From a virus, in IMG/VR virus record IMGVR_UViG_3300037261_000012, positions 1-64,000 of that record: DNA of 64,000 nucleotides. The stretch is one strand, 5' to 3'. Each line of letters opens with the position of its first letter. Position 1 is the first letter of the stretch. Below the pieces are notes generated by a model. That model was given only the letters and a program-made list of their open reading frames with translations, ran no database searches and was not told where the DNA came from. The position numbers were made by a program, and so were the translations under genes. Shown one piece after another: positions 1 through 5,556 of the stretch.

Positions 1-183
1 CAGCTAAACAAGCTATGGAGTGTCCGCATAACAATCTTTCTTACGCTGCTGGCGGGGTCTGATCAGATTCTTGGGCTTTTTCAACTGTATATTCCACCTG
101 TGGTTTATTCCTTGCTGGGTATAGCTATCGTTATAACCCGCTTGGTGTATCAACCTAAATTATATGCCAGTGTTAATACCTGA
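1..183 (+). CDS. Holin-like membrane protein (5'-truncated at window edge)
   Basis: Manual frame-1 translation QLNKLWSVRITIFLTLLAG...SLLGIAIVITRLVYQPKL...* has two hydrophobic segments and overlaps the start of the lysozyme gene. Confidence 0.65.
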   Translation, partial: QLNKLWSVRITIFLTLLAGSDQILGLFQLYIPPVVYSLLGIAIVITRLVYQPKLYASVNT

Positions 184-646
184 ACAACATCAGAAGAAGG
201 CTGCGTGGATAACACTTTGTGTGGCGTGTGTAGCTGGCTTCGAAGGCTTGCGTACAAGTACGTACTTCGATGTAGGTGGAATCCCAACAGTATGCTTTGG
301 AGAGACCAAGAATATAAAAGTAGGAGACAAGTTCACACCAGAACAATGCAAGAACATGCTTGGAGACAGGCTGATAAGAGATTTTGGGCCAGGAGTGGAC
401 AAGTGTGTACATCACCCACTCCCTCCACCAAGAAAAGCGGCCTACACCAGCTTTGCATACAATGTTGGTATCAAGGCGTTTTGTGGTTCCACAGCAGCTA
501 GGAAAGAAAATGCAGGAGACATAGAAGGTGCTTGTAATGCCTTGATGTCTTGGAATAAAATACGAGTTGCAGGGGTAATGGTGTATTCCCCTGGATTGAA
601 TAACCGCCGTGAAGAAGAACGGCAACTTTGTCTTACTAAGGAGTGA
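164..646 (+). CDS. Endolysin, GH24 phage lysozyme, probably SAR type
   Basis: E-x8-D-x5-T catalytic triad (FEGLRTSTYFDVGGIPTVCFG), SFAYNVG, GLNNRREEE; weakly hydrophobic N-terminal segment. Confidence 0.92.
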   Translation: MPVLIPEQHQKKAAWITLCVACVAGFEGLRTSTYFDVGGIPTVCFGETKNIKVGDKFTPEQCKNMLGDRLIRDFGPGVDKCVHHPLPPPRKAAYTSFAYNVGIKAFCGSTAARKENAGDIEGACNALMSWNKIRVAGVMVYSPGLNNRREEERQLCLTKE

Positions 647-1257
647 CCATGAATAACGCCCCAAGCAAGCAGCGTGGAGTAATTGCCGCTATTTGGTTGT
701 ACGCCATAGCTGCAATTGCCATTCTAGCTATGTTTACAGCCGCAATCTCTGCCTGGCACAGCTATACCGACGGGTTGGTAAAGAAAGGGCATGATGCTGG
801 TGTTGCAGAGGAAAAAGCCCTGTACCTGGCTAGGGACAACAAACAACTTCGTGATGTTGAAGCAGCCAAGAAAGTGGTAGAAGCAAGGGTAGAAGCACTT
901 GAAGCACAACTTGCCGTATTACAAGCTACGGCCCTACGGAAATACAACCAAGGAGTAAAAGATGAACAAGCTAAAACTAACGCTGCTGTTGCTGCCGCTG
1001 TTGCTGGCACTCTCGTCCTGCGCGACCCAGGAAAAAGTGGAGCCAGCACCCCCTGTAATAGTGTCGATGCCAAAGGCCAAAGCACCTGCGGTACCGGAGG
1101 AAGTGATGGTAAGACGGGAGCCGTCCTTTCAACAGAGGCTGAAGTCTTTCTTCTCCAACTCACAGGAGAAGCCGACGAAGTAGTGAAACAATTAACCTTG
1201 GCTCAAGACGAAATAGACATACTGCAAAAGACTATAAAAGACTTACAAAGTCCATGA
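643..1257 (+). CDS. Rz-like inner-membrane spanin
   Basis: N-terminal TM helix, coiled coil, C-terminal ADEVVKQL; follows the lysozyme and contains a nested lipoprotein ORF. Confidence 0.8.
   Translation: MTMNNAPSKQRGVIAAIWLYAIAAIAILAMFTAAISAWHSYTDGLVKKGHDAGVAEEKALYLARDNKQLRDVEAAKKVVEARVEALEAQLAVLQATALRKYNQGVKDEQAKTNAAVAAAVAGTLVLRDPGKSGASTPCNSVDAKGQSTCGTGGSDGKTGAVLSTEAEVFLLQLTGEADEVVKQLTLAQDEIDILQKTIKDLQSP
962..1183 (+). CDS. Rz1-like outer-membrane lipoprotein spanin nested in Rz (+1 frame)
   Basis: Signal peptide with lipobox LALSS-C, Pro-rich mature part, upstream AGGAG. Confidence 0.8.
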   Translation: MNKLKLTLLLLPLLLALSSCATQEKVEPAPPVIVSMPKAKAPAVPEEVMVRREPSFQQRLKSFFSNSQEKPTK

Positions 1258-1993: not shown

Positions 1994-2308
1994 GTGAAAC
2001 TTTCTTCAATAATAGCCGCTCTTGCTTTTCTGCCAGGTTGTGCGTTTGCAACCTATATCTACAATGATCACTATCCATCAACATTAACAACAGTAAAAGT
2101 TGAAATTGAGTGGTTTGATTCTGAGGTAGAGTTAAATGAGATGTGCTGGCGTATTGGGTTGGACAGTCGAAACCATTATACCGGGTGCTCCATAAAGGTT
2201 AAGGATATTGGGTACATATATGTGGTTAAACCAAAAGACTTTAATGATCATTTCAGGTTAGAAGTTCTCGGGCACGAGTTGTATCACATGCTTGGGGCAT
2301 ACCATTGA
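1994..2308 (+). CDS. Secreted HEXXH metallopeptidase-like protein
   Basis: Signal peptide; LGHELYHMLGAYH. Confidence 0.6.
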   Translation: MKLSSIIAALAFLPGCAFATYIYNDHYPSTLTTVKVEIEWFDSEVELNEMCWRIGLDSRNHYTGCSIKVKDIGYIYVVKPKDFNDHFRLEVLGHELYHMLGAYH

Positions 2309-2375: not shown

Positions 2376-4718
2376 ATGAAAATCTACGACTCTCTCAACC
2401 CAACATTTTCCGCAGCCGAAGCACTTGGTGTGGTCACAGTCTCCGCCAACGCCCAAGGTGCCCCTCTTGATCTGGCTCCTGCGACCAGCAATGCCACTCG
2501 TTTGCCGCTGGTTACAGTGCCCAAAAATCTGTATCAGCCTGACCAGAAAAGCTATACCATCACCCCAACAGGAGTACATACCGGGGACACAGTTACCATC
2601 AATGGGCGGGTATTCACGGCCACCGGTAGCACGGCTGACGTGGGCAAGATTGTATTCACTAATAATTTCTCAGTAGCAGATACCGTAACAATAAATGGTG
2701 TGGTTTTCACAGCTATAGATGGTGCCTATGCAACAGGGAAGATTGTCTTCACCGGCAACTTCAGTTTGTGGGATACCATTACCTTGAATGGAAAGGTCTT
2801 TACTGCCATTACTACTGCCGCACCCGCTGTTGGTAAATTGGTATTCACTGGAAATCTGCTTGCTGGAAACACCGTAACAGTAAATGGAAAGGTGTTTACG
2901 GCTGTGGGGATTGCGGCTCCCGCAGTAGGTAAGATTGTATTCACCGGGAACTTCCTGAATGGTGATACGGTTACCTTCAACGGTGTAACTTTTACTTGCC
3001 ATAAAGCAGCCCCATCAGTTGGGAGTATTGCCTTCACTGGGAATATTGCTCCTGGAGAAACAGTAACAGCCAATGGAATAGTATTTACCTGCATGGCATC
3101 AGGTGCAGCCGGTGATCAGTTCAATGTTGGAGCAAGTCTTTCCGTTACGTTGGATAACCTAGTAACTGCCTTGAATGCTCACGTTGGAGCAGCAGTTGAT
3201 TTCGCTACTTGGAGCAAAACTGGAGGTAATGCAGCGGTCACTGGAACGTCTGATACCAATGACGCAACCCAGAATGGTCGTACCTTCAGTTCTACTGCCT
3301 CACCAGCCCCAACTATCACGGCCTTTGCTAATGGTGTGACTGCTGCCAGTGGTGAACTTCAGTTTGACTGGGATACAACTTTATCTCTGTCTTTGGATGC
3401 CTTAGTCACCAAGCTACAGGCTTGCAGTGATGTTCTTATTTCATATGCGACATACACCAAAACAGATACCAATACAGCAGTAACTAGCACTTCTGACACA
3501 AATAACAGTGCTCAGAATGGGTTGGTATTTACTAGCACGCACGCTACTGTGGTGGTGACTGCCCCTGTTGGTGGAGTAAGTGCCCCGGCAGGTGAATTCC
3601 AGTTTGCGATTGACACCACACTTAGTCTGTCGATAGATAATCTGAATACAGCCTTGAATGGGTGTACAGATGTTGCTGTATCTTATGCAACATACAGCAA
3701 GACCGATGGCAATACAGCAGTTACATCCACTTCAGATACAAATAACAAAGTTCATAACGGGGTGGCTTACCCAGGTGGAACAATTGTTCTTGCTAGTAAC
3801 CACAGCACTGTAGTCATTACCCAGCCTTCTGGGGGAACGGCAGCAGCTACAGGTGAATTTGAATTCACTATTGCTGGAAGCCTGTCCCTGTCTTTGGACG
3901 CCCTGGTGATTGTGTGTAATGCTTGTACTGATCCCTTGATTACCTATGCTACATATGACAAGTCTGATACCAATACTTCTCTTAGGAGCATAGCTGATAC
4001 ACATGGTACGGCTTACAATACTCCAACTGTTGTGTTTAGCTCTACACACTCAACTGTGGTGGTGACTCAACCAGTTGGTGGAGTAGATGATACAGATGGA
4101 AGTGCTGCTCAATTTGATGTTAAGGCAACCCTGGCTCTGACTTTGGCGGCTTTAGCAGCAAAATTGACTGCCAGCGTTGTTGCAGCAGTGGCCATCGCTG
4201 ATTACACGGTTACTGATGGAGATACTGCCATAACAGTCACCTTAAATCGCTTGCGCGGGTCTGCCGGTGATGCAATTGTATTAGCAAGTAATCATAGTAC
4301 AGTGGTTGTGACTCAGCCAACTGGAGGTTCAGATACCACTGCATACAACACCACAACCTTCTGCACAGGAGCACCATCTGATGCTGAGACTGCTGCAAAC
4401 CTGAATTCAGCAATAAATACTTGGAAAGCCAATGCAGGGGCGGCATTCCAGCTACATGATGGTAAAGTAGCCATGACAGCCACCAATGTAGCTTCTTCAG
4501 GCGCTGCTGTTACTACTTTTGATCTTCAAGTTAGTACTGATGGGGTTAATTACATCCAGCACCCTGAAGGAAGTAACCCAACTCTATCCTTGAATCAAAC
4601 ACCTGGTGAAACAAAGACCACACCTATGTATACAGCCTACCCATTCGTTCGGGCTAAGTGCCTGACTAAAACAGGAACCAACGCAGAAGCACAAGCGTAT
4701 ATTGCAACAGCCATATAA
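2376..4718 (+). CDS. Virion-type structural protein with six nested repeat domains
   Basis: T/A/G/V-rich; six GKIVFTGN..GDTVT.NG.VFT segments followed by six QF....LSLSLD.L...LNA.....ATY segments; C-terminal LQVSTDGVNY...PFVR. Confidence 0.75.
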   Translation: MKIYDSLNPTFSAAEALGVVTVSANAQGAPLDLAPATSNATRLPLVTVPKNLYQPDQKSYTITPTGVHTGDTVTINGRVFTATGSTADVGKIVFTNNFSVADTVTINGVVFTAIDGAYATGKIVFTGNFSLWDTITLNGKVFTAITTAAPAVGKLVFTGNLLAGNTVTVNGKVFTAVGIAAPAVGKIVFTGNFLNGDTVTFNGVTFTCHKAAPSVGSIAFTGNIAPGETVTANGIVFTCMASGAAGDQFNVGASLSVTLDNLVTALNAHVGAAVDFATWSKTGGNAAVTGTSDTNDATQNGRTFSSTASPAPTITAFANGVTAASGELQFDWDTTLSLSLDALVTKLQACSDVLISYATYTKTDTNTAVTSTSDTNNSAQNGLVFTSTHATVVVTAPVGGVSAPAGEFQFAIDTTLSLSIDNLNTALNGCTDVAVSYATYSKTDGNTAVTSTSDTNNKVHNGVAYPGGTIVLASNHSTVVITQPSGGTAAATGEFEFTIAGSLSLSLDALVIVCNACTDPLITYATYDKSDTNTSLRSIADTHGTAYNTPTVVFSSTHSTVVVTQPVGGVDDTDGSAAQFDVKATLALTLAALAAKLTASVVAAVAIADYTVTDGDTAITVTLNRLRGSAGDAIVLASNHSTVVVTQPTGGSDTTAYNTTTFCTGAPSDAETAANLNSAINTWKANAGAAFQLHDGKVAMTATNVASSGAAVTTFDLQVSTDGVNYIQHPEGSNPTLSLNQTPGETKTTPMYTAYPFVRAKCLTKTGTNAEAQAYIATAI

Positions 4719-4727
4719 GGAGTACGT

Positions 4728-5078
4728 ATGAAGGCAGCACTGAAGGTAGTGAAGGTTGAGAATTTTTATGACGTGGCTAGTGGAAATCGAAGCTCCAGGG
4801 TGATCCTGGAGTCCACAGCCAAATCTCTAACGGCAATAGGGCCAAAACCTGAGACCAGGGTGGAGATTACCGTAAAAGGAAATACCGGCATTGATATGAC
4901 CAGGATTAAAGATTACGTTATAACCTTGGTTTCAAATGAAGACCTACTGAAGGCCGAGGCCGAGGTCAAGGCAGAGCCAAAGGCTAATAATGGGCCTGCG
5001 AACTTTCTCGATGGAGGGGAAATAATCCCTCTAAATGGTGGGGTGAGCATATCCTCAGAACAGCTTCGGGGCCTGTGA
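4728..5078 (+). CDS. Hypothetical protein
   Basis: AAGGAG RBS; 116-aa ORF. Confidence 0.65.
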   Translation: MKAALKVVKVENFYDVASGNRSSRVILESTAKSLTAIGPKPETRVEITVKGNTGIDMTRIKDYVITLVSNEDLLKAEAEVKAEPKANNGPANFLDGGEIIPLNGGVSISSEQLRGL

Positions 5079-5488
5079 TGTTGCTACAGGCTGAACGAGA
5101 GCAGTGCATAAGAGCAGCAGTGTTACATGGTGTAGTAGATGATGACTCTCTACGGTCGGCCCTTGACGATGCTGATGACCTTCTGGAGAGTCTAGTTAAT
5201 ATCTCTCTGGCTTTCCACCATAAAGTGGCGTTGATTGGCCTGGCTGCTGATGTTCTGCGTGGAAGGGTAGATGGTGATCTTGAAGGTAGTAAGTTGATTG
5301 ACCTTCTTAATCAAGGACAGCTTCAACTGGCTGCTGCGGAATTTCAGAACTGGTGTAGGGTGGATGGATGCATGGTACTGTCCATGTATCAAAAACGTCT
5401 GGATGAGATGAGGGTGTTCCAAGGGGATTGTAATGATCTCCACAAGTGGGCTACCGGCCACGGTAAAAAAGAACTGTTCAATAGTTAG
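5075..5488 (+). CDS. Degenerate GH24 lysozyme-like protein lacking the catalytic N-terminal lobe
   Basis: SKLIDLLNQGQLQLAAAEFQNWCRVDG...QKRLDEMRVF resembles the lysozyme C-terminus; no E-x8-D-x5-T triad. Confidence 0.55.
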   Translation: MMLLQAEREQCIRAAVLHGVVDDDSLRSALDDADDLLESLVNISLAFHHKVALIGLAADVLRGRVDGDLEGSKLIDLLNQGQLQLAAAEFQNWCRVDGCMVLSMYQKRLDEMRVFQGDCNDLHKWATGHGKKELFNS

Positions 5489-5556
5489 AAAGGGCTTGAC
5501 AGTCCGGCAAATTGTGTTATACTTTGCAATCAAGTGCAGTAAGCAATGGAGTGGTT

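Follow-up and report, generated by a model that had tools for sequence, protein, structure and literature searches.

A phage protein that probably nests one tail-sheath-type domain six levels deep on a jelly-roll base

Introduction

Recursive nesting of domains of one family is already known from an RNA polymerase insertion, Si3, and from contractile tail sheaths. Si3, in the beta' subunit (RpoC2) of cyanobacterial RNA polymerase, consists of recursively inserted sandwich-barrel hybrid motifs that form an arm of ~150 Å (PMC10895346), and its nesting was described as six-level in a 2026 survey (PMC13114784). Contractile tail sheath proteins (T4 gp18, diffocin CD1363, pyocin) have been likened to a Russian doll, with outer domains inserted within one another; up to four domains (I–IV) are nested in this way, and the outermost pair, III and IV, differs in fold from one contractile system to another (PMC6088184). 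Here we describe P0001, a 780-residue protein encoded at 2376–4718 (+) of a 64,000-nucleotide stretch of viral DNA (the window; positions 1 to 64,000 of IMG/VR record IMGVR_UViG_3300037261_000012), in which six N-terminal halves (N1–N6) of one small domain are followed by six C-terminal halves (C6–C1). As a whole, the protein is best explained, with good confidence, as a single-chain recursive nest on a jelly-roll base, forming an arm with a tip.

P0001 resembles Si3 in that one small domain family is inserted into its own copies and several of the domains are discontinuous in sequence. All N-halves and five C-halves were recognized as one homologous family by hidden Markov models (HMMs), and C1 by an HMM of the surrounding scaffold; discontinuity of the outer domains was found at level 1 in the sequence and at level 5 in a structural model, and is indicated at levels 2–4 by sequence order only. 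The two systems differ in fold, the Si3 motif being an all-beta barrel and the P0001 domain an alpha/beta domain of the sheath type, and in setting, as Si3 lies in a cellular enzyme and forms a branched, irregular tree with some continuous members, whereas the P0001 nest follows a strictly linear order (N^6 C^6), and its close relatives have depths of 0 to 3. P0001 shares the fold of its repeated domain with the outer domains of sheaths, but it lacks a sheath core, iterates one domain six times and belongs to a phage with siphovirus-type tail genes. Our searches of the literature brought up no phage protein whose self-nest is both deep and strictly linear, and the particular value of P0001 lies in a clean depth series and an exact insertion point.

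Results and discussion

Six N-halves and six C-halves of one domain

The reading frame of P0001 is open over its whole length, stop codon included, and an identical protein was found on 4 contigs. A motif scan located the core [DNE]T[VI]TxNGxxFT six times, at amino acids (aa) 71, 102, 133, 165, 197, and 228, and five of these occurrences are preceded by GxIxFTxN (aa 90, 121, 153, 185, and 216). Because circularity was to be avoided, P0001 was excluded from the profiles used to search it: two half-domain HMMs were built from 19 single-domain relatives (alignment A3), cut at the loop between the N- and C-halves. The N-half HMM matched P0001 six times, at aa 70–87, 90–114, 121–149, 153–179, 185–208, and 216–246 (independent E-values (i-E) from 2e-5 to 4e-15), and the C-half HMM gave five full matches, at aa 247–320, 329–400, 409–487, 496–569, and 578–651 (4e-19 to 3e-22), with every N-half match preceding the C-half matches and no interleaving. 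When the uncut A3 profile was run on the phage DNA, it returned one whole-domain match (aa 212–324) with five N-only matches before it and four C-only matches after it, and across the whole phage genome it found the domain in no gene other than P0001. The sixth C-half, C1, was recognized by the profile of zero-insert homologues described below; it starts with TTFCTG and is a short form of one strand and a helix, the latter predicted at aa 670–687. These results confirm that P0001 has six N-halves and then six C-halves, as the initial annotation had read from the sequence, and assign both to one ~110-residue alpha/beta domain. The annotation had also noted that divergence is greatest in the first N-half and in the last C-half, and this held.

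An exhaustive search of representatives returned 225 relatives, most of which align to aa ~211–330 of P0001, the contiguous N6 and C6. Among 190 family proteins whose architectures were tallied, 112 read NC and 20 read NCNC, and since the relatives are mostly contiguous in this way, the N-half and the C-half can be taken as two parts of one ~110-residue domain. The 907-aa flagellar hook protein P0006 carries a tandem array of four copies. Repeats at the DNA level inside the P0001 gene are short and 63–90% identical, and the duplications are therefore old and their mechanism is not revealed. A maximum-likelihood tree of the C-halves was mostly unresolved and placed C6 on a long branch; it suggests only that C3–C5 cluster with innermost units from relatives, and C2 with outer ones.

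One database match needs separate mention. P0001 scored 31.4 bits against CBM_5_12 (PF02839), above the cut-off, yet the match (aa 195–211, window 2958–3008, on the N5 hairpin) covers only profile positions 10–26, or 17 of 44. We read it as a short hairpin-motif resemblance and not a carbohydrate-binding module, and automatic annotation would probably label P0001 as carbohydrate-binding, wrongly. The Pfam search of P0001 returned no Phage_cement (PF22758) match, and tblastn found nothing similar to P0001 or to its relative P0153 in 50,697 phage records.

The outermost level and a series of depths

The outer boundary of the array was defined by homologues that carry no inserted array. We built a scaffold HMM from 15 of these zero-insert homologues (~200–220 aa), which have both ends of P0001 and, between them, one N-half running directly into a short C-half. 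On P0001 this profile splits in two: its positions 1–89 match aa 1–87 (i-E 2.8e-18) and its positions 88–208 match aa 656–778 (i-E 1.3e-22), with no scaffold match between the pieces. The insertion thus spans 568 residues (aa 88–655) and lies in the loop between the N- and C-halves, after "FTA". Judged by these alignments, the outermost split of P0001 is proven, and the insertion falls at one exact loop.

Relatives with intermediate numbers of layers were also detected. Proteins of depth 0 include P0039, P0160, P0025, and others; the contigs that carry P0039, P0160, and P0163, all zero-insert homologues, are 87–99 kb long. A second scaffold, which differs from P0001 by its C-terminal domain, carries one whole inserted domain (depth 1) in P0007, P0008, P0010, and about 15 others, two levels (NNCC) in P0005, P0009, and P0153–P0156 by HMM, and three levels (NNNCCC) in P0002 (50% identity with P0001). 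The NNCC arrangement recurs in other scaffolds, in P0067 by HMM and in P0079 and P0086 by eye, so that about 10 proteins show it in total and the nest is carried by at least three different scaffolds. Homologues had been expected to vary in nesting depth with equal numbers of N- and C-halves, zero-insert forms included, and depths of 0, 1, 2, and 3 were found; among proteins in which consecutive N-halves are followed by C-halves, no clear case of unequal counts was seen. Missed profile matches within tandem or mixed arrays account for only part of the other, odd strings (NNC, NCC, NCNNC, NNNC, and similar ones). An alignment made with MAFFT for folding P0002 was discarded, as it had spliced together halves of different C units, and viral and metagenome contigs yielded no usable locus for close relatives of P0001, P0039, P0153, P0160, or P0164, or for alignments A5 and A6.

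Folding and pairing of the layers

We modeled the whole of P0001 with AlphaFold2, for which the input alignment covered the center of the protein only and left levels 2–4 without coverage. The mean predicted local distance difference test (pLDDT) score was 57, with the best values in the central units (Table 1), and the same secondary-structure pattern recurs in every unit. In structure alignments (VIA-align), model residues 210–321 have the fold of a phage tail-sheath outer domain. The best sheath match was that of A-1(L) (8kee_A; Z 9.8, root-mean-square deviation (rmsd) 2.7 Å over 93 residues, 23% identity), and the sheaths of Mu and Milano followed at Z 8.9 each (9khy_a and 8fqc_K1). The same fold is found in T7-type nozzle proteins, FliD, and the outer domains of flagellins. 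Sequence searches of the Protein Data Bank (PDB) with the domain and with alignments A3 and A5 returned chance matches or none. A single-domain relative, encoded on a contig discussed below, weakly matches the tail sheath family phrog_165 (E 8.5e-5). As a whole, P0001 does not qualify as a tail sheath protein, which would have the conserved core domains I and II: it matched no sheath family in Pfam or PHROGs, and its base is a jelly-roll.

The sheath domain of PhiTE (residues 86–178) bears on pairing. It superposes on model residues 212–319 (N6 and C6) with Z 7.5, and the same 93-residue domain also superposes on a second set of residues running from 183 to 397, with 81 residues aligned at an rmsd of 2.2 Å and Z 7.6. 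Eight further small domains (entry 9d9w is listed twice) span the model from residues 180–184 to 397–399 with 69–86 residues aligned. Because a compact domain can span 215 residues only by skipping 111 of them (aa 216–326), N5 and C5 would constitute one domain around N6–C6, and the model in this way shows N6 paired with C6 and N5 with C5 within one chain. The initial annotation had predicted that each N-half would pair with the C-half of its own level; this came out for levels 6 and 5, while levels 2–4 fall where model confidence is low. The recurring pattern and the shortness of the linkers lead us to infer, by analogy with the inner levels, that levels 2–4 pair likewise.

Several observations weigh against this nest. 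Levels 2–4 lie in low-confidence parts of the model, with pLDDT below 60 for N1–N4 and C3–C1, and the pairing of N5 with C5 is read from aligned ranges, not from coordinates or contact maps. A permutation test on unit-to-unit identities favored the nested register weakly (rank 15/720), and for the inner five units the nested register did not beat the parallel one. Among the relatives, P0035 was recorded with six or seven N-like units and no recognizable C-halves, and is the sole real exception to equal counts.

P0035 and the low confidence of the outer N units would fit two independent tandem arrays, in which the N units form a beta-hairpin stack, the C units are separate beads, and their equal numbers are coincidental. 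We regard this as very improbable. N and C units are equal in number in about a dozen nested proteins, which represent depths 2, 3, and 6 and several scaffolds; every half has its match in one half of a domain that more than 100 proteins carry uninterrupted; and the split of the outermost domain and the superposition of N5 and C5 on a single sheath domain both run counter to separate arrays. A longer relative of P0035, moreover, does have a C-like array after its N-like array. This is a 1714-aa secreted protein (L011:4851–9995 (+)) from a metagenome-assembled genome of Terracidiphilus (Acidobacteria), with about 9–10 N-like units of 34 aa (aa ~232–541), then about 8 C-like units of 85 aa (aa 542–1208), these counts being approximate, and a large C-terminal part. 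Its sequence indicates that N^k C^k nesting may reach greater depth in bacteria.

A nest could also be assembled between chains, with the N-array of one chain completing the C-array of its neighbor in an oligomer. The two parts of a split domain can complement each other in trans, the model shows intrachain pairing at levels 5 and 6 only, and jelly-roll bases of this kind are usually oligomeric, the prophage proteins YomS and XepA being pentamers and cement proteins trimers (PMC6834076). Such domain swapping nevertheless seems to us improbable, if less so than two unrelated arrays: N6 and C6 are contiguous, N5 and C5 pair within the chain in a model of the monomer, zero-length linkers between units suit a simple out-and-back path, and the nested order is that expected for insertion within one chain and recurs in unrelated scaffolds.

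We therefore return to the single-chain nest, for which the nested-insertion interpretation of the initial annotation is supported, and propose the following architecture. A base jelly-roll would be formed by residues ~1–58 together with ~691–780 and would bear a reduced module made of N1 and C1. The loop between strands 3 and 4 of this module would hold a full copy, N2 and C2, and the same loop of each copy would hold the next, down to the contiguous N6–C6. The chain would thus travel outward through six N-halves of three strands each, joined by short AAPAV-type linkers, turn at the tip domain, and return through six C-halves, each with a strand, a helix, and four strands. Stacked as beads, these domains may form an elongated arm that keeps the N6–C6 tip, called divergent because its C-half is on a long branch, away from the base. 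Arm length would evolve by gain or loss of whole layers at one fixed loop, and a layer could be added either in one step, with an entire copy of the domain inserted, or through duplication of N- and C-half units in pairs.

The jelly-roll base and a possible place on the virion

The initial annotation placed the whole array inside a small beta-rich domain formed by the extreme termini, and the model of the zero-insert homologue P0039 (pLDDT 85.7, predicted template modeling score 0.83) bears this out as a jelly-roll. Structural matches to P0039 span residues 1 to 216, yet only 93–108 residues align, to jelly-rolls of ~110 residues, so that the base would be built from both termini with the N1/C1 module inserted. 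The best matches of this model were YomS (6i5o_A; Z 9.9, rmsd 2.4 Å, 93 of 112 residues) and XepA (6i56_D; Z 8.0), then the KP1 baseplate cup (Z 7.7) and the lambda tail tip (Z 7.1), and the jelly-rolls of phage cement or decoration proteins scored Z 6.2–6.5 with many unrelated jelly-rolls alongside. In the ESM Atlas, the base resembles viral proteins of ~110 residues, some of them of the Bbp16 cement family. A profile of 15 base-family sequences against PDB sequences found nothing at E-values up to 10, YomS and XepA included.

The base may serve to attach the arm to the surface of the virion, which would make P0001 an accessory protein for decoration or adhesion; we favor this role modestly, and it draws on analogy with capsid-associated relatives. 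P0079 (376 aa) has Pfam Phage_cement (E 5.5e-19) fused to NNCC, and this match marks it as a capsid cement protein that is extended by a nested pair. The position directly after a major head gene is usual for a head decoration gene, and one relative, the 184-aa single-domain protein (L006:7860–8414 (+)) on a 38-kb IMG/VR contig, is encoded there. The proteins of phrog_28344 share the domain at the level of sequence (P0001 matches weakly, E 0.0017; the 184-aa protein matches at 8.7e-16). These small capsid-associated relatives, the phrog_28344 proteins and Phage_cement fusions, have one or two copies and other anchoring parts, unlike P0001, which has a jelly-roll base, lies far from the head genes, and reaches six levels. 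The domain is also present in the hook protein P0006 (Pfam Flg_bb_rod, LlgE_F_G_D1, and Flg_bbr_C), where its four copies are tandem and un-nested; its use thus extends from phages to flagella, and arrays of it can be tandem or nested. The outer domains of sheaths, T7-type nozzles, FliD, and flagellins, which are its structural neighbors, also speak for a surface role, as does the position of the P0001 gene, which follows the tail and lysis genes and precedes a strong promoter-like site. The initial annotation called P0001 virion-type, a label that we too infer.

The fold of the base and the place of the gene also tell against a virion location. The base is closest to YomS and XepA, which are prophage lytic-cassette proteins (PMC6834076), and the P0001 gene itself adjoins lysis genes, lying ~1.1 kb downstream of those for the endolysin and spanin. 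In the Stenotrophomonas phage DLP_5, only small open reading frames (ORFs) and no homologue of the base are found at the same position, so that P0001 is an accessory gene closing the late region, and a location on the virion is without support from synteny. The same nest may instead be no part of the virion but a lysis-cassette accessory, as XepA and YomS may be, with its action on the host envelope as infection ends. We consider this unlikely, though it is the most serious of the alternatives. YomS and XepA have no inserted stalk and no sequence-level similarity to the base family of P0001, Z values of 8–10 are only modestly above those of many unrelated jelly-rolls, phage cement among them, and the function of YomS and XepA is itself not established. 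The repeated domain, furthermore, is otherwise found on exposed virion and flagellar surfaces.

Genome context

The record is a complete 94.9-kb genome of a tailed phage, siphovirus-like and with a tape measure protein of 1759 residues. Its distant relatives are the Stenotrophomonas phages DLP_5, DLP_3, and Summit, with 62–63% identity in the major capsid protein. Positions 1–127 of the window recur at 94756–94883 of the 94,883-bp record; IMG/VR classes this recurrence of ~127 bases as direct terminal repeats, but an overlap left by assembly of a circularly permuted genome could also give rise to it. Genes are ordered as head, tail, tail fibers, lysis, three small ORFs, P0001, two small ORFs, the promoter-like site, and ATPase and replication genes (Table 1). 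The putative promoter lies just before the ATPase gene at 5512 and would set the late block, which P0001 closes, apart from the replication genes. On either side of P0001, three small ORFs at 4728–5488 (+) and 1994–2308 (+), of 116, 137, and 104 aa, belong to no PHROG family.

Table 1. Units of P0001 and neighboring features in the window.
Feature	Position	Strand	Evidence or remark
Endolysin	164–646	+	Upstream context
Rz-like spanin	643–1257	+	Upstream context
Whole ORF, P0001	2376–4718	+	780 aa
Base jelly-roll, N-terminal strands (aa 1–58)	2376–2549	+	Scaffold HMM, first piece; P0039 model
N1 (aa 59–89), outermost and most divergent N-half	2550–2642	+	Motif scan; half-domain and scaffold HMMs
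N2 (aa 90–120)	2643–2735	+	HMM, i-E 1.7e-10
N3 (aa 121–152)	2736–2831	+	HMM, i-E 8.7e-10
N4 (aa 153–184)	2832–2927	+	HMM, i-E 6.7e-11
N5 (aa 185–215)	2928–3020	+	HMM, i-E 9e-12; pLDDT ~84; C5 is its partner in the model
N6 (aa 216–246), innermost N-half, runs into C6	3021–3113	+	HMM, i-E 4.2e-15; pLDDT 93–98 (N6–C6)
C6 (aa 247–326), putative tip domain with N6	3114–3353	+	HMM, model, structure alignment, tree
C5 (aa 327–406)	3354–3593	+	HMM, i-E 3.3e-22; pLDDT 66–85; PhiTE sheath domain alignment
C4 (aa 407–492)	3594–3851	+	HMM, i-E 3.6e-21; pLDDT 83–93 at aa 410–450
C3 (aa 493–576)	3852–4103	+	HMM, i-E 3.7e-22
C2 (aa 577–658)	4104–4349	+	HMM, i-E 5.3e-20
C1 (aa 659–690), short C-half closing the outermost level	4350–4445	+	Scaffold HMM, second piece
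Base jelly-roll, C-terminal strands (aa 691–780)	4446–4715	+	Scaffold HMM; P0039 model; ESM Atlas
Sigma-70-like promoter	5496–5523	+	11/12; TTGACA, 16-nt spacer, TATACT, TG extension; consensus match only

Implications

Tandem duplication is how nearly all long repeat proteins grow, and a strictly linear nest six levels deep would be a different route to building an arm, one in which both ends of the chain stay at the base. The series of relatives at depths 0–3 lets folding be studied in such a system, as the outer domains cannot finish before the inner ones are made, and it offers a route to how depth changes in DNA and to whether arm length affects adsorption or virion stability. For protein design, the loop is of interest as a site tolerant of repeated insertion. 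For annotation, N-only and C-only profile matches within one protein may be one nested array and not fragments. More speculatively, and at somewhat less than even confidence, the sheath-type domain may be a general, evolvable extension module whose loop between strands 3 and 4 accepts another copy and which forms N^k C^k arrays, k ranging between 0 and 6 in phages and reaching about 8–10 in the acidobacterial protein, so that phages and bacteria could tune, bead by bead, the reach of a ligand-binding tip formed by the divergent innermost domain.

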